From: an uncultured Nitrososphaerota archaeon
GTDB taxonomy: Archaea; Thermoproteota; Nitrososphaeria; Nitrososphaerales; Gagatemarchaeaceae
Direction: 5' to 3'
DNA length: 24,000 nt
Assembly: GCA_963718895.1 (NCBI GenBank)
Contig: CAVRAG010000007.1
Span: forward strand, 435,988-459,987
The notes under the pieces are model-generated. The model worked only from the letters and a program-made list of their open reading frames with translations, did no database searches and was not told where the DNA came from. Below are positions 15,839 through 22,766 of this stretch, in pieces. The first letter of the stretch is position 1. The number at the start of each line of letters is the position of its first letter. A program made the translations under genes and the position numbers.

Positions 15839-15964
15839 ACAGGAGCTTAGCTGGTCAAGTCCGGGTTACCCCCGCGCTCCCCTCGCGGGTCCCACCTCGG
15901 CGAGGACGCTGTCAGGCGGATGGAGGAGATCCGTGGTCCTCGTGGGAGACGGACGTGCAATAGA

Positions 15965-15974
15965 CTTAATTTTT
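15965..15974 (+). promoter_or_regulatory. TATA-like box for the disulfide oxidoreductase
   Basis: CTTAATTTTT is centred about 26 nt upstream of ATG 15996. This supports 15996 rather than 15933 as the start. Confidence 0.45.
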
Positions 15975-15995
15975 CCGACAGTCCCCGGGAGTTCG

Positions 15996-17496
15996 ATGAA
16001 GGAGTACGACGTCATCGTCATAGGAACGGGGTCCGCGACGAACCTGCTCGATCCGATGATCCAGAGAAACCCCAAGATCAAGATAGCGGCCATCGACAAG
16101 GACGAGCCGGGTGGCATCTGCCTGACGCGCGGCTGCATCCCGTCGAAGCTGCTGCTCTATCCCGCAGAGCTCGTGAGGACGTTGGAGAAGGGAAACGACC
16201 TCGGGGTCTCAGCTGAGGTGAAGGTCGACTTTCCCAAGATCATGAGGCGGATGAGGACACTCGTCGACAGAGACATCAATTCCATCAGGGAGGGCCTCTC
16301 GACCAGCCCGAACATAGACTACTACCACGCCTCGGCCGAATTCGTCGCGCCTTACACCTTGCAGGTGGCGGACGAGACGATACGAGGGAAGCAGCTCTTC
16401 CTCTGCACCGGTTCCCGCACAGCCATTCCGCCGATAGAGAACCTTGAGAAGGTGGGTTACCTGACCAGCGACAGCGTACTGAGACTCACGAGGCTCCCCG
16501 CGAGCATCGCCATAATCGGAGGGGGGTACATCGCCGCCGAGTACGGCCACTTCTTCTCGAGCATGGGATCCACCGTCACGATACTGGGGAGGAACAGCCA
16601 GTTCCTGCCCGGTTACGAGCCGGAGGTCGCGCTCGTCGCGCGGCGGGAGCTCGAGAGGCACATGACGATAATCACCAACAGGGAGGTGGTAGAGGCTGGG
16701 GAGAAGGACGGTGTGAAGACCCTGAAGGCAAAGGACAATGAGAGCGGGGAGATCTCGGTGGTTGAAGCGGAGGAGGTGATGGTCGCCGCGGGGAGGGAAT
16801 CGCTCGTCGACATTCTCCATCCCGAGAGGGCCGGAATCACGACGGGTCCCGGCGGCTGGATCGCCGTAGACGAGTACATGCAGACGAGTCAGCCGAACGT
16901 CTGGGCGCTGGGTGACGCCGACGGCAGGTACCTCTTCAAGCACGTAGCGAACTACGAGTCGCGGGTAGTCTACTACAACGCGGTCTTGGAGCAGAGGATG
17001 AAGGCGGACTATCACGCCGTTCCCTCACGCGGTCTTCACCTACCCGGAGGCCGCCGGGGTCGGACTGACTGAGAAGGAGGCGGTCGAGCTCAACGGGGAG
17101 GAAGACGTCGTGATCGGGTTCTATCAGTACGAGAACACCGCCAAGGGCGAGGCGATGGGCGCCAAGGACTACTTCGTCAAGGCCGTCGTGCAGCGCAGCT
17201 CGATGAGGATCCTGGGAGCTCAGATAGTCGGTCCCCACGCGTCTATCCTGATACAGGAGATCGTGAACGTGATGTACACCCCCGAGCAGAGCGCCTCGGT
17301 GGTGAACCAGGCCATGCACATCCACCCGGCATTGAGCGAGGTCGTACAGCGAGCATTCTCTCGCTCGTGCCCCCTGGCGACTACCATCACATGCTTGGTC
17401 ACCTCGGACTCGAGGCCCACGAGGACGACCACCACGACGAGTAGCGCCCACAGCCGCGGAGCAGGACCACACCCTCGGCGGGCGTCACGCTCTTAA
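15996..17496 (+). pseudogene. Class-I pyridine nucleotide-disulfide oxidoreductase (dihydrolipoamide dehydrogenase/mycothione reductase-like), frame-disrupted
   Basis: The start MKEYDVIVIGTGSATN (FAD fold) is followed by the redox-active GGICLTRGCIPSK. Frame 3 stops at 17072 after ...KADYHAVP. The conserved continuation HAVFTYPEAAGVGLTEKEA...HIHPALSEVV is in frame 1 from 17026 (track ORF 17110..17496). The break is a one-base excess at CCC 17022..17024. Confidence 0.8.
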
Positions 17497-17522
17497 GCAG
17501 GAAGGAGTGTGTCCTGGCGACC

Positions 17523-18086
17523 GTGATCATACTGCCTGACGCCTTCAACTTCGGGGAGGCCGACACGGTCGTCACCTTCGTCAGCTCCCTGGCAATTATC
17601 CTGGGCGCCGTCTTCGTCGTCTTCGAGCTGAGAGACAACAAGAGGATGGTCGCCGCAGCGAACGAGCAGGCAAGGGCCGCCACGCTCCAGGCCAAGGCGA
17701 GCACCGAGCAGATGAAGCAGACCAACACCATCGCAGACATGGACATGATCATGCGACTCTACGAGTTCGCCAACACCAGGGAGTTCCAGACCTCGTGGCT
17801 GACCGTGCTGAACTCAAGGCTCAGTTCCTTCGAGGAATTCGAGAAGCTGCCGAGAGAGGAACAGGTCGCGTTCTACCAGGTGGCCTCGCTCTTCGAGTCG
17901 CTGGGAGTCCTGGCGAAGATGGAGATCGTCAAGCTCGAAACGGTGGAGGACATGTTCGTCCCAGAGACCGCATGGACGGCGATGAAGCCCTTCCTGGAGG
18001 GCGTCCCATCGAAGTACGGTGGGGAGGGGTTCACCTACTTCGAGAAGCTGAAGGACGACATCGCCAAGCTCCACGCGCAGCCCTGA
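17523..18086 (+). CDS. Membrane-anchored hypothetical protein (single N-terminal TM helix plus helical domain; DUF4760-like by pattern)
   Basis: 187 aa with a GTG start. The TM segment is VVTFVSSLAIILGAVFVVFEL. It is followed by a helical region with ...VAFYQVASLFESLGVLAKMEIVKLETVEDMF... Confidence 0.55.
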   Translation: MIILPDAFNFGEADTVVTFVSSLAIILGAVFVVFELRDNKRMVAAANEQARAATLQAKASTEQMKQTNTIADMDMIMRLYEFANTREFQTSWLTVLNSRLSSFEEFEKLPREEQVAFYQVASLFESLGVLAKMEIVKLETVEDMFVPETAWTAMKPFLEGVPSKYGGEGFTYFEKLKDDIAKLHAQP

Positions 18087-18179
18087 GCCGGGCAAAGTCG
18101 TCAACGGCCGACCGGTACCTCTCGTCCACGCCTCGAGGACAGCGGGCCGGACGGAACCTGATCCTCCTGCGACCTCACG

Positions 18180-18620
18180 CTACTGGTTTTCGCCGAGTAT
18201 TGTGAAGAAGGTCTCAGCTGTCATGTACGTTCCGTCCGAGGGGACGTGGAGACTGCACCTCATCGGCTTGATGTACTTCGTCGGTTCTGCCAGCTTGATG
18301 ACCAGCATCTCATCGCTCTCGGTCTTGCCGGAGCTCGCCAGATACTCGTCGAGTTCCTGACCAGAGAGGCACAGGTCGCCCCCGTACCGCCGGACTCCGC
18401 TGACGGGCTCACGGGACACGCTCGAGACCCTTCCCTCTGCGTCGAGGAACCTCGCGCCTCCGGAGACATACAGGAACGCCCTGTCTCCCGGCTCGAGGTC
18501 AGACGGAAACTCGTCGACGAAGAGCGCGATGATTGGGCGATGGTGTAGCACCCTGTTTATGGTCTCCCCTTCGAGGGGCAGTATTATCCCGGTGACGCCG
18601 TTCTTGCCCACGCCGGGCAC
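18180..18620 (-). CDS. Hypothetical protein, possibly PUA-like/ASCH-fold
   Basis: 146 aa. Its GTG start directly abuts the NiCoT stop (TAG-GTG). The pattern GIILPLEGETINRVL...LEPGDRAFLYVSGG...AEGRVSSV...ELDEYL...LVIKL.EPTKYIKP resembles ASCH-type small barrels. This assignment is tentative. Confidence 0.5.
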   Translation of the reverse strand: MPGVGKNGVTGIILPLEGETINRVLHHRPIIALFVDEFPSDLEPGDRAFLYVSGGARFLDAEGRVSSVSREPVSGVRRYGGDLCLSGQELDEYLASSGKTESDEMLVIKLAEPTKYIKPMRCSLHVPSDGTYMTAETFFTILGENQ

Positions 18621-19718
18621 CTACGGCTGTGCGCTGATAGAGCCACCGGTCGGGGCCGAGACGGCCAAGATGTTGGAGTACTTCTGTTCGAACCCGTTCA
18701 GCCGCCAGTAGGCCATAGAGACGACCCAAGACACGACGAAGAGACCTACGATGCCGAAGCCGATGGTCTCAAAGTCCAGGCCCTGTACCCAGATCCAGAA
18801 ACCGCCCGAAAGCCTGAGTTCTGTCGAGAGGACCTGGAGCACCTCTATCGAACCGACGACCCACGCCACCATCACCGAGATTATCGTCACCGTGAGGTTG
18901 TAGTAGACCTTCCTCAGCGGATGGAGGAAGGCCCACCCGTAGGCGACCCTCATCAGGACCCCGTCGGTCGTGTCGACGAGGACCATCCCGCAGGTGAACA
19001 TCAGGGGCAGGACCAGGATGTAGTAGAGTGGTATGCTCGTGGACACCCCGACCCCCACGCTGATCGCGATCAGCGCGACCTCGGTCGCCGTGTCGAAGCC
19101 CAGGCCGAACAGGACCCCAATCGGGTAGATCTGCCACGGCTTCTTGACGATCTTGAACAAGGGATGGAAGTACCGGTTCAGGAAGCCGCGGTTCTCCATC
19201 AGTCTGTCGAGCTCGGCCTGGTCCGTCTTCCCTTCCTTCATTGCCCTGAAGATCCTGTAGACCCCTAGGACGATCAGGACGTTCACGAGGCCGATAATCC
19301 ACAGGAACCCTCCGGAGATCAGGGTGCCGAAGACGTTGCCAGCAGCCTGCAATTCAGGTATGCTCGCGCTGACGGCTCGAGTGGCCACCACGAGCGCCAC
19401 GATAAGCCCCACTACGATCGTGGAGTGACCCAGAGAGAACCAGGTCCCGACGGTCAGGGGACGCTTGTTCTCCTGAATGAGCTTCCGGGTCGTGTTGTCT
19501 ATTGCCGCTATGTGATCCGCGTCGACCCCGTGGCGGAGGCCGAAGACGTATGAGACGAGGCCCAGCCCAGCGAGGACGATCGCCATGCGCCCAATGGCGA
19601 ATGACGCAAGGAAACCAAACACCGTGACAGCTATTATGAGTCCATAGAGCAGGACCACCCTGACCTTCTCGGTGCCGGTGAGACCCATGACCGACTCAGC
19701 CTCTCGTGCCACTCCCAT
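18621..19718 (-). CDS. NiCoT-family nickel/cobalt permease (HoxN/NixA type)
   Basis: 365 aa and polytopic. The signature GLRHGVDADHIAAIDNTTRKL (H-x4-D-H) is followed by WFSLGHSTIV. The start is ATG 19718 or ATG 19688 (Met11). Confidence 0.92.
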   Translation of the reverse strand: MGVAREAESVMGLTGTEKVRVVLLYGLIIAVTVFGFLASFAIGRMAIVLAGLGLVSYVFGLRHGVDADHIAAIDNTTRKLIQENKRPLTVGTWFSLGHSTIVVGLIVALVVATRAVSASIPELQAAGNVFGTLISGGFLWIIGLVNVLIVLGVYRIFRAMKEGKTDQAELDRLMENRGFLNRYFHPLFKIVKKPWQIYPIGVLFGLGFDTATEVALIAISVGVGVSTSIPLYYILVLPLMFTCGMVLVDTTDGVLMRVAYGWAFLHPLRKVYYNLTVTIISVMVAWVVGSIEVLQVLSTELRLSGGFWIWVQGLDFETIGFGIVGLFVVSWVVSMAYWRLNGFEQKYSNILAVSAPTGGSISAQP

Positions 19719-19724
19719 CGCCCC

Positions 19725-19730
19725 TTTAAC
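19725..19730 (-). promoter_or_regulatory. Possible TATA-like box for NiCoT
   Basis: The minus strand reads GTTAAA. It is only about 8 nt from ATG 19718 but about 40 nt from ATG 19688. This is a weak call. Confidence 0.25.
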
Positions 19731-19742
19731 CTCTCAGTTTGC

Positions 19743-19781
19743 AAAAACAGTGGTGACGGAGGAGCATCACGCTCCTCCGTC
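19743..19781 (-). terminator. Stem-loop followed by T5 between the DUF4331 gene and NiCoT
   Basis: A perfect 11-bp stem GACGGAGGAGC/GCTCCTCCGTC (19755..19765 and 19771..19781) has a 5-nt loop. On the transcribed strand it begins 8 nt after the DUF4331 stop and is followed 7 nt later by TTTTT (19743..19747). Confidence 0.4.
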
Positions 19782-19789
19782 CGTCGTTC

Positions 19790-21247
19790 TCAGTTCTGCA
19801 GTGCCTCCGCCGTGTTCGCCAGGTAGCCCTGGTACGGGTGAGGCAGGTACGGGAAGTTGCTCAGGTAGGGCACGGGGTTGGTGGTTCCGTCGTTGAGCAG
19901 CGACGCGGCTGCGTCGGCGGTGAACTTGCTGTTCACGAGCGGGATGGTCGCCCCTGCGATCGCCTGGAGCTCGATTGCCGTCACGTTGTCGAAGACCCTC
20001 CGCCCGTTCGGGAAGCCGGAGGCGTCTCCTCCCAGGAGCCCCAGCCTGTTCGAGGCGTTCGCGGCAGGGTTCGTCGTGGTTATCGCTGGCGGGATGGCCA
20101 GGTTCAGTCGCAGCTCGTCCGCCTGGACGGTGCCCGTGTAGTTCTGGAAGCCTGCGATGATCCCGGTCGGGATGCCCGTGAGCAGGATCGCGACGAGGTC
20201 GGGCCGCGTGCTGTTCGAGGTGGAGTAGGCCGCGAGGTTCGGGAAGACGCCCGGGTAGAGGACCGGCAGCAGTCCCTGGAGCTGAGGGCTGTTGTACGAT
20301 GCCAGGAACTGAGAGTCGGCCGCCGGCGCCTGCTGGTTCCAGTAGTCCTTCTGGAGGAGGGGGATCATGACCTCGTTGATCAAGGGGTTCCCGAGGCGGG
20401 AGACCTGCAACCATGGACCCGCGAGCTCTGCGATGGGTGCGTTGTACTGGTCGGTCTCGAGCACCCTGACCCTCTGGCGGCTCGCGGAGCTCCAGACGCC
20501 TATGGTCGCGTTGGGATCGCTCACGCCTGTCGGGAGCTTCCCCGTGCTCGTCAGTTCGGTGATCGGGACCTGGATCGCTATCGAGTGGACGTTGAAGCTG
20601 CTCGTCCCGTCGACGCCAGTGGTGGTCGGCGGTGTGGGTATCAGGTGGTCGCTTGCGAAGGGCCTCAGTGTGCCGAGGTCGAAGATTGACCCGAGGTCGA
20701 CGTAGAACCCGTCTGCCCTGGGTCCCGCGAAGACGGTCTGGCCCGTCGCCAGCGTGTAGACTGTGTTGGGGAATATTGCGGTGTCGTAGTTGGCGGTCGA
20801 CCTCGGTCCGATGTCGGGAGGTGGGACCAGCAGCCCGGTCGCTAGGGTGACGTTGTCCGACGAGAACTGGTCCCTTCTTGACCCGTTGACCTTTGTGACG
20901 CTGTACGTCTGCCAGACGTTCAGGTTGGTGAAGCTCTTGGTGCTCGAGTTGTACGATATCGGTCCGACGTTGTAGAGGAAGGTGGCGCTGTTGGCGACGT
21001 GCGTCTGGAACCGGAACTGGTACGTGATCTCCTCCGCCCCGTCCCCGTCGTTGTCTATCATTATCTCGTAGAGCACGTTCGGGTCGAACCGATAGAAGTT
21101 CGGCCCCGCGGCCGCGCCCTGAAGCGGGATGAAGTTCGAGATCAGGGTCACCGTTGAGGGCTTGTCGGGGCTTACGAAGGCATAGACGTCAGTGTTGTCC
21201 GCGGCCGGGTCCGAGGATATTCCAGGAGCTTCTCTGTGGGAGGTCAT
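19790..21247 (-). CDS. DUF4331-family protein (function unknown), without signal peptide
   Basis: 485 aa. The N-terminus MTSHREAPGISSDPAADNTDVYAFVSPDKPSTVTLISNFIPLQ...GPNFYRFDPNVLYEIMIDNDGDG... and the later ...QVSRLGNPLINEVMIP..KDYWN... and ...GFPNGRRVFDNV... match the conserved DUF4331 blocks as I remember them. Confidence 0.85.
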   Translation of the reverse strand: MTSHREAPGISSDPAADNTDVYAFVSPDKPSTVTLISNFIPLQGAAAGPNFYRFDPNVLYEIMIDNDGDGAEEITYQFRFQTHVANSATFLYNVGPISYNSSTKSFTNLNVWQTYSVTKVNGSRRDQFSSDNVTLATGLLVPPPDIGPRSTANYDTAIFPNTVYTLATGQTVFAGPRADGFYVDLGSIFDLGTLRPFASDHLIPTPPTTTGVDGTSSFNVHSIAIQVPITELTSTGKLPTGVSDPNATIGVWSSASRQRVRVLETDQYNAPIAELAGPWLQVSRLGNPLINEVMIPLLQKDYWNQQAPAADSQFLASYNSPQLQGLLPVLYPGVFPNLAAYSTSNSTRPDLVAILLTGIPTGIIAGFQNYTGTVQADELRLNLAIPPAITTTNPAANASNRLGLLGGDASGFPNGRRVFDNVTAIELQAIAGATIPLVNSKFTADAAASLLNDGTTNPVPYLSNFPYLPHPYQGYLANTAEALQN

Positions 21248-21248
21248 C

Positions 21249-21566
21249 CTAGTCGAACCTCGCGTGGATCGCGCTCCTCAGCTTCGAGGCGAGCGCGGCG
21301 TCCTGTATCTTGATCCCCTGAAGACCGCTGTAGCTGCTTACGATGTCCCCTTTGATGACGAGGACGGTCGTCCCTGTGGGGTCCTGCGAGGCCGTGCCGG
21401 TGCCCGCTGCGCTCGCGGGCAGGCTCGCTGGCTTTGCCGGGGCGTTCTGGACCGGGCTTGCCTGAACCCCCCCGGAGAGGTTCCCAAGGTATGGGGCCGC
21501 GGCCAGGGCCGCAGTTGCCGCCATCGCTCCCTTGATGGCATCTCTTCTTGAAAGATAGATTGACAT
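21249..21566 (-). CDS. Small Tat-signal protein of unknown function
   Basis: The internal ATG at 21566 of ORF 21249..21932 gives a 105-aa product starting MSIYLSRRDAIKGAMAATAALAAAPY: a twin-arginine motif S-R-R-x-A-I-K plus an h-region. It continues with a Pro/Ala/Ser/Thr linker and a roughly 45-aa C-terminal module. The stop lies 1 nt before the DUF4331 ATG, and a TATA-like box lies about 29 nt upstream. Confidence 0.6.
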   Translation of the reverse strand: MSIYLSRRDAIKGAMAATAALAAAPYLGNLSGGVQASPVQNAPAKPASLPASAAGTGTASQDPTGTTVLVIKGDIVSSYSGLQGIKIQDAALASKLRSAIHARFD

Positions 21567-21590
21567 GAACCTAAATTCTGGGGTTACCGT

Positions 21591-21598
21591 CTTTATAC
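21591..21598 (-). promoter_or_regulatory. TATA-like box for the Tat-signal protein/DUF4331 unit
   Basis: The minus strand reads AAGTATAAAG, centred about 29 nt upstream of ATG 21566. Confidence 0.45.
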
Positions 21599-21725
21599 TT
21601 AGGCCGAGATTACACCCAATTCTCGCCCGAATCCTGTCTGTGATGAGATTCCTGCAATAATTGTGCAGAACTCTGGTCTGAAGCGCATAACCTACACCAA
21701 AAAGGGTACGGCCGGCGCGCCGAAC

Positions 21726-21733
21726 GTTTATTG
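21726..21733 (+). promoter_or_regulatory. TATA-like box for the NTF2-like gene
   Basis: GTTTATTG is centred about 27 nt upstream of ATG 21757. Confidence 0.4.
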
Positions 21734-21756
21734 AGCGTCCGTGGAAGCGTGGGCCT

Positions 21757-22227
21757 ATGGAGAATGGGGCGAATGTGTTAATCGACCGCGCCGCGGTCGC
21801 AGACACGGTCACGAGGCTCTTCGTCAACACAGATGAGAGAAACTGGAAGGGTGTGGCGGACTGCTTTGCCTCCAAAGTTCTCTTCGACATGTCCTCACTC
21901 TCGGGAAGCAAGCCTTCGAGAGTTGGCCCCAAGAAGATCGTCGATCAGTGGGAGTCCGGGCTAAGAGGGCTGACGGCGGTCCACCACCAGATAGGGAACA
22001 TGCTGGTCAGCGTGGAAAGTGGTGAGGCGATGGCGTTCTGCTATGCGACCGCGACCCATTACTTCCCCAACCCGACCGGGAACGAGACACGGACCTTCGT
22101 GGGGACCTACGACATCCACCTAATGAGGTCCGAGGACGGCTGGAGGATAGACGCGTTCAGGTTCAATCTGAAGTTCAGTGAGGGCAACGCGCTCCTCTCC
22201 GACTTGGCAAGGAAGGCATCCCGGTAG
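21757..22227 (+). CDS. NTF2-like/SnoaL-like family protein
   Basis: 156 aa. The translation ...RAAVADTVTRLFVNTDERNWKGVADCFA..VLFDMSS...HHQIGN...GTYDIHLMRSEDGWRIDAFRFNLKF is the typical SnoaL_4/NTF2 cone pattern. Confidence 0.75.
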   Translation: MENGANVLIDRAAVADTVTRLFVNTDERNWKGVADCFASKVLFDMSSLSGSKPSRVGPKKIVDQWESGLRGLTAVHHQIGNMLVSVESGEAMAFCYATATHYFPNPTGNETRTFVGTYDIHLMRSEDGWRIDAFRFNLKFSEGNALLSDLARKASR

Positions 22228-22238
22228 GAGCGGAGCCA

Positions 22239-22766
22239 TCACGCGGGGCCCGGATGCTCTACGGCGGCGGGCTCCAAAGTCTCCTTGACCAGGATCACCT
22301 CTCCCGGGACGACCCACATGCTCCTGTACATCGACAGCGCCTTGAACGCGCCGTACCTCTTCGAGACCTGGCCGAAGTCGGTCCTCCTGAAACCCTGGCC
22401 TTTGAAGAGGGCGTTCGACTCCACGTTGTGCTCCCCCACAGACGCATACACCTCGACTGCCCGAGCTCGGGCGAAGAACTCGATCGAGTCCTTCACGAGT
22501 CGGCCCCCGATCCCTCTCCCGCGGAAGGAGGGAACGACGGCGATGTAGTAGACGTAGCCCGCCTCTTCTCCTAGTAGTTTTAGCATCGCAAGACCGATCG
22601 TCTCGTCGCCGAGCCGGGCGACCCTGACCGATTCCACCTCCTCCAGAATCCGCTTCGCATGCCTAAGGTAGATACCCGTGAAGCTCTTCTCCAGCACCTG
22701 GACGAGCGAGTCTCTCTCCTCGGGCGCCGCGTCCCCGATCGCCACGTCGGCCGCCTCGGAAGTCAA
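22239..22766 (-). CDS. GNAT-family N-acetyltransferase
   Basis: 175 aa with a TTG start, forming a TTGA overlap with the upstream stop. The acetyl-CoA motif is YYIAVVPSFRGRGIGGRLVKDSIEFF. Confidence 0.85.
   Translation of the reverse strand: MTSEAADVAIGDAAPEERDSLVQVLEKSFTGIYLRHAKRILEEVESVRVARLGDETIGLAMLKLLGEEAGYVYYIAVVPSFRGRGIGGRLVKDSIEFFARARAVEVYASVGEHNVESNALFKGQGFRRTDFGQVSKRYGAFKALSMYRSMWVVPGEVILVKETLEPAAVEHPGPA

Follow-up and report, generated by a model that had tools for sequence, protein, structure and literature searches.

What does a large protein family of no assigned function do when one of its members is encoded between a tiny protein with an export signal and a nickel/cobalt permease? 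The question is raised by a stretch of 24,000 nucleotides (nt) from an uncultured Nitrososphaerota archaeon (contig CAVRAG010000007.1; hereafter, the window). On its minus strand, four co-oriented genes encode a mini-protein with a twin-arginine translocation (Tat) signal, a DUF4331 protein, a Ni/Co permease of the NiCoT family and an ASCH-fold protein (Table 1). An initial annotation of the window had described these genes and proposed that they form a nickel-handling module; a check of the open reading frames (ORFs) found all four at the positions given. We conclude that DUF4331 probably represents a new exported protein that handles metal. Our preferred reading, to which we assign a probability of about 45%, is that DUF4331 and the mini-protein would constitute a two-protein exported metalloprotein, in which DUF4331 is metallated in the cytoplasm with the help of the permease and leaves the cell as a Tat hitchhiker.

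The DUF4331 protein matched PF14224 with 418.7 bits (cut-off 27), its residues 3-471 aligning with positions 2-421 of the 421 in the profile, which confirms the family assignment. Its homologues, at least 8000 among the matches listed, are spread over many phyla of bacteria and archaea, and the closest of them (85% identity) are labelled Nitrososphaerales (Thaumarchaeota). An AlphaFold2 (AF2) model of the 485 residues reached a predicted local distance difference test score (pLDDT) of 84.8 and a predicted template modelling score of 0.88. No match in the PDB was obtained either with the sequence or with the fold of this model, and no paper naming DUF4331, PF14224 or IPR025566 was found in the literature searched, in agreement with the initial statement that the family has no described role. 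A DNDGDG motif resembling a calcium-binding loop is conserved in DUF4331. A C-terminal G[YF]xHxH motif, usually accompanied by an aspartate, was seen in nine of the 13 homologues of one alignment (A1), that is in most bacterial and some archaeal DUF4331 proteins of the window type.

The N-terminus of DUF4331 is invariant in its register. The sequence [ST]-S-H-R-E stands at the N-terminus, without a signal peptide, in 118 of the 120 best homologues, the remaining two being N-terminally truncated; in 116 of the 118 it comes right after the initiator residue and in two after a short called extension. In 83 of 83 genomic loci, S-H-[RK]-E follows the start codon, be it ATG, GTG or TTG, at a distance of exactly two codons. 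Distant relatives (30-37% identity) were found in Marinobacter, Pseudoalteromonas, Sulfitobacter, Comamonadaceae, Lichenicola, Streptomyces and Miltoncostaea. Relatives bearing their own signal were collected by tblastn of annotated plasmids, which gave 13 annotated loci with incomplete gene tables. In seven signal-bearing relatives the predicted general secretory (Sec) or Tat signal ends ...A/S-S-H-R-E-A-P every time, the slash marking the cleavage site. Methionine excision and signal cleavage thus converge on one register, and the mature N-terminus is always predicted to be X-Ser-His. The amino-terminal Cu(II)- and Ni(II)-binding (ATCUN) motif is defined by a free amine, a histidine at position 3 and no proline at position 2. 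The sequence register of DUF4331, [S/T]-S-H, fits this motif throughout, on the assumption that the amine is free, i.e. that processing occurs and N-acetylation does not. On this basis, we infer that the X-S-His N-terminus of DUF4331 binds metal.

The same relatives indicate where the protein works. Since they carry Sec or Tat signals of their own, the DUF4331 domain functions outside the cytoplasm, and genes for extracytoplasmic functions lie near them: a sortase in Streptomycetaceae, type II secretion system (T2SS) clusters in Rhodobacterales and a TonB-dependent receptor in Adhaeribacter. The conserved DNDGDG loop is a further sign of an extracytoplasmic site. The family is extracytoplasmic in nature, and DUF4331 of the window, which has no signal peptide, would be so too. 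In the Streptomycetaceae locus the sortase is of class F (L094:6291-7034). A fasciclin-domain protein (L087:11235-11888) is encoded near the Streptomyces locus in which DUF4331 is joined by a tetratricopeptide repeat (TPR) protein and a permease; fasciclin proteins are known members of the SigK/RskA regulon in mycobacteria. On four Rhodobacterales plasmids (L088, L095, L096 and L097), a signal-bearing DUF4331 and an ORF of about 70 codons lie by a T2SS cluster and an A24 prepilin peptidase, which suggests secretion beyond the outer membrane there; no metal permease stands beside DUF4331 on these plasmids.

How does a protein without a signal peptide reach the outside? We examined 85 loci of the window type, 80 of them from one-genome-per-species contigs, with DUF4331 identities of 49-60%, supplemented by four contigs from metagenome or metagenome-assembled genome (MAG) assemblies. 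The 80 genome loci span Actinomycetota, Chloroflexota, Dormibacterota, Bathyarchaeota, Nitrososphaerales, Thermoplasmata and Aminicenantes. Streptomyces and Kitasatospora are among the genera with loci of the window type (L015, L017 and L092). Homologues of the mini-protein were sought in six-frame translations of the loci with a local hidden Markov model (HMM) of its C-terminal 50 or so residues. They were found in 83 of the 85 loci, the exceptions being L041, where upstream DNA is missing, and L034. The mini-protein gene immediately precedes that of DUF4331 and shares its strand, except in L010, L023 and L030, where the two diverge, and the gaps between them range from -17 to 135 nt. In the window the DUF4331 start follows the mini-protein stop by 1 nt, as first annotated, and a GAGG lies 11-14 nt upstream of that start. 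What is conserved is therefore the pair and not the set of four genes. The pairing is essentially obligatory (83 of the 84 loci with upstream DNA), whereas the NiCoT permease is an optional accessory; the idea of four genes as a single conserved module did not hold, with NiCoT in about 10% of window-type loci and the ASCH gene restricted to one lineage. In none of 83 loci are the two proteins fused, as the favoured reading would expect if the N-terminus of DUF4331 must be kept free. The possibility that the pair is one frameshifted gene was rejected, since 83 loci keep them as distinct genes and the length expected of a fusion was seen in no homologue.

The mini-protein is built, over about 100 residues, from a Tat signal, a variable linker rich in Pro, Ala, Ser and Thr, and a conserved domain of about 40 residues. 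Its twin-arginine (RR) signal, noted from the outset, was confirmed by the Tat-signal model TIGR01409 (19.6 bits, cut-off 16.7). In the window the signal reads LSRRDAIKG, followed by an Ala-rich hydrophobic (h) region and a VQA-S site, both conserved within the archaeal clade, while the 27 close homologues share an MSxxLSRRDA start and about 80 homologues across the loci show the consensus [LVI]-S-R-R-x-F-L-[RK] followed by a hydrophobic stretch. These homologues back the ATG at 21566 as the start (signal region 21525-21566, minus strand). The public protein identical to the mini-protein (P0121, 91 residues) begins downstream of the RR motif, so that the source annotation hides the Tat signal. 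The C-terminal domain gave no Pfam match, and we propose that it could act as a docking module for DUF4331. A wider profile search of 1.84 billion representatives (E up to 1e-3) returned 43 matches to the mini-protein, nearly all stand-alone proteins of 80-140 residues, with no informative fusion among them. One protein of 1286 residues (P0182) contains seven stretches resembling the C-terminal domain, either a repeat form of it or a low-complexity artefact.

The metal connection comes from the neighbouring permeases. The product of the third window gene matched PF03824 (329 bits, cut-off 27.7) and TIGR00802 (347 bits, cut-off 333), possesses the motifs HGVDADH at residue 63, LGHS at 96, DTATE at 209 and DTTDG at 249, and bears the H-X4-D-H signature; a crude hydropathy scan gave about eight hydrophobic spans. 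With the NicT equivalog NF052500 it scored 395.7, under the cut-off of 450. The protein is thus a member of the NiCoT family, as first annotated, but cannot be given the name NicT. NicO genes of the NiCoT type occur within 8 kb of DUF4331 in nine of the 85 window-type loci (eight within 3 kb, one at 3-8 kb), in Nitrososphaerales, Actinomycetota, Chloroflexota and one MAG labelled alphaproteobacterial, in varied gene orders. Signal-bearing DUF4331 genes have another accessory set, a TPR protein and a permease, and this set and that of the window type are mutually exclusive. Seven of the 13 signal-bearing loci encode a permease of a Ni/Co family: four HupE_UreJ_2 proteins (PF13795), each with a signal peptide and an ectodomain whose mature N-terminus is a histidine, and three RcnA-like PF03824 proteins, one with a His-rich loop. 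The Streptomyces and Nostoc permeases matched the RcnA efflux model with E values of 3e-36 and 4.5e-29, far under its curated cut-off. Beside DUF4331, then, permeases of Ni/Co-associated families are met repeatedly, in three forms and in many lineages, which upholds the genomic link first suspected from the window. Ectodomains of 'anglerase'-HupE/UreJ-2 permeases, which have an N-terminal histidine, have been found experimentally to bind Cu2+ and Ni2+ and are proposed to fish for metal, and the commonest neighbours of these permeases are proteins of unknown function (PMC12537917).

Further genes recur around the pair. TatC is encoded within 3 kb in eight loci and TatA in 13, about 18 of the 85 loci in all. 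A third gene, detected with a local HMM built from domain-only seeds, follows DUF4331 immediately in 69 of the 85 loci (L005-L084, e.g. L065:9500-9600, L040 and L067). It encodes a beta-rich protein of about 105-140 residues, with no Pfam match and no signal peptide, with the motif VLDIGGDxGALV...RTH..V.ERR...AAVFP.LP.G.Y, and about 20 copies carry His-rich tracts such as HDHDHEHPH or HGHGHGHSHEHGHGHGH. The initial account had the genes of the window right but overlooked this often His-rich third gene of bacterial loci, together with the invariant X-S-His mature N-terminus and the logic of a Tat hitchhiker. Of the 85 loci, 22-24 encode an extracytoplasmic function (ECF) sigma factor and 22 an anti-sigma factor of the RskA type (PF10099); papers on ECF19 and RskA give the signal of RskA as unknown and make no link to DUF4331. 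In four Bathyarchaeota loci (L006, L008, L009 and L035) an ArsR-type helix-turn-helix regulator, a small membrane protein and TatC/TatA are encoded just upstream of the pair. Adenylosuccinate synthetase is encoded downstream of the pair in Bathyarchaeota loci, and nearby in the window too.

These observations can be assembled into a mechanism. DUF4331 would be synthesised as a signal-less protein in the cytoplasm, and removal of its methionine would free a Thr-Ser-His N-terminus. This ATCUN-type end, possibly with the invariant H201 and H221, would be loaded with metal inside the cell, the adjacent NiCoT permease raising cytoplasmic Ni/Co for the purpose. The folded protein would then bind the conserved C-terminal domain of the 105-residue mini-protein, whose twin-arginine signal would ferry the complex across the membrane by hitchhiking. 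Placing the signal on a separate carrier, instead of giving DUF4331 a cleavable signal of its own, would leave the N-terminal amine free before export. The hitchhiker part of this scheme fits because the signal is present on the mini-protein only, the cargo is signal-less and belongs to an extracytoplasmic family, the genes are coupled and unfused, and Tat genes are often adjacent. Metal insertion in the cytoplasm followed by export in the folded state is known for Tat-exported metalloproteins generally, and the separate carrier, the cytoplasmic His-rich protein and the neighbouring NiCoT permease suggest the same order of events here. As for the metal, Ni or Co would be favoured in the window, with Cu as the alternative.

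Several points weigh against this scheme. An ATCUN site has a higher affinity for Cu(II) than for Ni(II), so the metal could be copper, and cytoplasmic loading would then be unlikely. N-terminal acetylation is common in archaea and would block an ATCUN site. In the AF2 model, residues 1-17 of DUF4331 are of low confidence and drawn as a flexible tail, which places the N-terminal site outside the model. The clade of the window ends in ...GYLANTAEALQN (19790-19840, minus strand) and lacks the C-terminal HxH, a possible second metal motif. Of the window-type loci, only about 10% have NiCoT beside DUF4331, and in the majority of bacterial ones no metal transporter is near. The HMM of the third gene found no copy in the window, in L001, L004 or L007, or in the Bathyarchaeota loci, and the gene is missing from the other archaeal loci as well. 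The recurrence of permeases in three forms is the association that the initial annotation called for; the rate at which NicO would adjoin DUF4331 by chance was put at well under 1% per locus by estimate and not by a computed control. As the set of 80 genome loci is made up of the nearest matches to the query, with Actinomycetota predominating, the frequencies given here do not describe the family as a whole. Finally, DUF4331 and NicO are separated in the window by a spacer of 71 nt in which folding confirmed the hairpin and T5 run first reported (11 bp followed by U5, -27.5 kcal/mol, z -2.9). The hairpin and T-run are retained in L001, the closest relative, and L093 has a different hairpin; the arrangement suggests that the two genes are at least partly separately transcribed.

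The same genes might also be read in the opposite direction, with DUF4331 capturing Ni, Co or Cu outside the cell through X-S-His and feeding the adjacent permease for import, the Tat signal and mini-protein serving for export or tethering only; CopC-CopD and the 'anglerase' domains would be the parallels. The signal-bearing type suits this idea well, since it joins DUF4331 to a TPR protein and a permease in a triad whose permeases can have an N-terminal-His ectodomain of the kind already mentioned, a binder of Cu2+ and Ni2+ with a proposed role in fishing for metal (PMC12537917). The TonB-dependent receptor that adjoins DUF4331 in Adhaeribacter, and the ECF sigma factor with its RskA-type membrane anti-sigma factor, a device for sensing outside the cytoplasm, in about 22 loci, are also in keeping with it. 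It leaves unexplained, however, why 83 of 83 loci use a separate Tat carrier instead of a cleavable signal and why 69 of 85 co-encode a signal-less, often His-rich cytoplasmic protein. Moreover, some 450 residues with about 80 invariant positions exceed the needs of a simple metal tag, and NiCoT permeases work without binding proteins. We therefore consider capture from outside a serious but rather unlikely explanation.

The large size and high conservation of DUF4331 would be less of a puzzle if it were an exported enzyme apart from metal trafficking, for example an N-terminal-nucleophile (Ntn) hydrolase, its adjacency to NiCoT reflecting lineage synteny and coincidence. The first mature residue is always Ser or Thr, as in Ntn hydrolases, no Ni permease lies within 8 kb in 76 of the 85 window-type loci, and the Rhodobacterales copies keep company with T2SS genes and no transporter. 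Yet His3 is invariant to the same degree as residue 1, the model has no likeness to the alpha-beta-beta-alpha fold of Ntn hydrolases or to any PDB fold, and its 17 N-terminal residues are drawn as a flexible tail and not as a buried strand; coincidence also sits poorly with three groups of Ni/Co-type permeases recurring in unrelated phyla and varied gene orders, and with co-encoded His-rich accessory proteins. An enzyme of this kind appears improbable. Lower still in our estimation stands a metal-stress or resistance device, in which ECF and anti-sigma factors would sense excess metal outside the cell and induce a sequestering DUF4331 along with an RcnA-like exporter. Its sigma and anti-sigma pair stands beside DUF4331 and the mini-protein in about 22 of the 85 loci and recurs in Pseudoalteromonas, the RcnA efflux model is matched by the Streptomyces and Nostoc permeases (E 3e-36 and 4.5e-29), and ArsR/SmtB-type regulators occur nearby in Bathyarchaeota and on one Streptomycetaceae plasmid. 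Those RcnA matches fall far below the curated cut-off, however, the permease of the window is a NiCoT protein that has every element of the importer signature, import is the function described for HupE/UreJ proteins, and archaea lack ECF sigma factors, which makes ECF regulation inapplicable to the window.

The proposed two-protein exported metalloprotein draws on kinds of system that are already known, namely the Tat hitchhiker and the permease-coupled metal site at an extracytoplasmic N-terminus. As in the hitchhiker pairs HybO/HybC and DmsA/DmsB, one of two translationally coupled proteins bears the RR signal and the larger partner, here from an extracytoplasmic family, has none; Tat genes lie near in the 18 or so loci mentioned, and a Ni permease gene is close by, as hoxN is in [NiFe]-hydrogenase hitchhiker clusters. 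The carrier of DUF4331 differs in having only about 100 residues, with a mature part made of a linker and a domain of about 40 residues without a cofactor motif; the cargo has a fold with no PDB match, and complex formation and co-export are here predicted. With ATCUN and other N-terminal-amine sites (serum albumin, the Ni-hook of nickel superoxide dismutase (NiSOD), and the histidine brace of CopC, YcnI and lytic polysaccharide monooxygenases), DUF4331 shares a His position fixed from an N-terminus that is predicted to be processed, and an extracytoplasmic nature of the family. Its His is at position 3 (X-S-H), whereas histidine braces and NiSOD have theirs at position 1, and its predicted binding motif sits, unlike other ATCUN-type sites, on a conserved body of about 450 residues.

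The window permease satisfies the models and motifs of the NiCoT family (HoxN/NixA/NhlF, TC 2.A.52). NiCoT genes typically adjoin the genes of the Ni/Co enzymes that they supply, such as hydrogenase, urease or nitrile hydratase; here the putative client is an uncharacterised exported protein, and a preference for Ni or Co cannot be read from the permease sequence. The permeases beside signal-bearing DUF4331 share the architecture of 'anglerase'-HupE/UreJ-2 proteins (signal, His ectodomain, PF13795). The window differs from the 'anglerase' and DUF4198 Ni-binding proteins in having a NiCoT permease and a DUF4331 that is a separate protein and not a fused ectodomain; DUF4331 is not named in that work (PMC12537917).

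The fourth gene lies outside the general DUF4331 system and is only a putative member of a module in the window. Its product, initially described as a PUA/ASCH-like unknown of 146 residues, gave no Pfam or NCBIfam match, and an orthologue gave only a weak match to PF04033 (DUF365). The AF2 model, of moderate quality (pLDDT 70.7), supported the ASCH part of the description: Foldseek retrieved 2kku (E 1e-6, probability 1.00, template modelling (TM) score 0.57), then 5guq, 5gus and 9kyf, with TM scores of about 0.57-0.59. The start required revision, as the 13 homologues all begin MGKNGVTG, which makes the second GTG, at 18611, the more probable one. The family comprises 13 homologue clusters with H26, H27 and C122 invariant. 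Its members were all seen in this archaeal group; every one that was located adjoins NicO in the same syntenic block, an adjacency inseparable from synteny. Two more distant copies (31-33% identity, two lineages) adjoin NicO on the opposite strand. The gene may be linked to NicO. The model superposes on ASCH-domain proteins such as AF2351, ZmASCH and YqfB, although a Pfam ASCH match is lacking and the invariant HHRP and Cys residues are peculiar to this clade. RNA or modified nucleosides are the targets of the known ASCH members, a function with no evident tie to metal. The protein of the window was also considered as the archaeal counterpart of the bacterial third gene and rejected, as the two have no sequence similarity and differ in fold class.

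Upstream of the pair, a TATAAAG lies 24 nt ahead of the mini-protein ATG and is preceded by a direct repeat, GATTCGGG / GAATTGGG (21633..21615). The TATA box and the paired repeat, GATTTGGG twice, are conserved in L001 and L093, and the repeat may be a regulator site. An Rfam search across 17500-22500 (E up to 1) gave no match, hence no NiCo or B12 riboswitch there. Beyond the four genes, a DUF4760 protein of 187 residues (17523-18086, plus strand) is encoded convergently to the ASCH gene, a position kept in L001, L093 and L100. Next to it, a pyridine-nucleotide-disulphide oxidoreductase (15933-17496, plus strand) is broken into ORFs of 379 and 128 residues; relatives L001, L100 and L102 have it intact as one gene of 480-482 residues, and the break is a frameshift, reflecting either a pseudogene or an assembly error.

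Table 1. Features of the DUF4331 locus, in window coordinates, listed from the promoter side.
Feature	Position	Strand	Evidence or remark
Putative promoter: TATAAAG (21597..21591) and direct repeat (21633..21615)	21591..21633	minus	kept in L001 and L093
Tat-signal mini-protein gene, 105 residues	21249..21566	minus	TIGR01409 match; start common to 27 close homologues
Predicted cleavable Tat signal, residues 1-36, MSIYLSRRDAIKG, Ala-rich h-region, VQA-S	21459..21566	minus	cleavage predicted
C-terminal domain of mini-protein, about 40 residues, VLVIKGD...QDAALASKLRSAI	21252..21371	minus	only part of the mini-protein conserved from archaea to Actinomycetota
DUF4331 gene, 485 residues, no signal peptide	19790..21247	minus	PF14224, E 4e-125
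Invariant N-terminus of DUF4331, M-T-S-H-R-E-A-P	21224..21247	minus	Met removal would give T-S-His3, an ATCUN-type motif
Hairpin (11 bp) and T5, terminator- or attenuator-like	19744..19781	minus	folding -27.5 kcal/mol, z -2.9
NiCoT-family Ni/Co permease gene, 365 residues	18621..19718	minus	PF03824 and TIGR00802 above cut-offs
ASCH-fold protein gene, 143 residues from GTG 18611 (ORF reaches 18620, 146 residues)	18180..18611	minus	fold matches 2kku, 5guq and 9kyf

In its broadest form, our proposal would make DUF4331 and its carrier of about 100 residues an unrecognised, widespread exported system for Ni/Co (or Cu), with metallation aided by permeases and His-rich proteins and export by hitchhiking; at that breadth we regard it as possible but doubtful. 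For annotation, the start of the mini-protein is mis-called in the source record and the third gene has no family model. DUF4331 may be among the proteins of unknown function that neighbour the HupE/UreJ-2 'anglerase' permeases. If the proposal is correct, it would represent a new solution to the problem of supplying an extracytoplasmic protein with a weakly competitive metal, and a clean case of how cells choose the metal for an exported protein. It would also add an extracytoplasmic metalloprotein system to soil archaea, Actinomycetota, Chloroflexota and marine Proteobacteria. A large family without a function, DUF4331, thereby gains a specific and testable hypothesis from a single gene neighbourhood.

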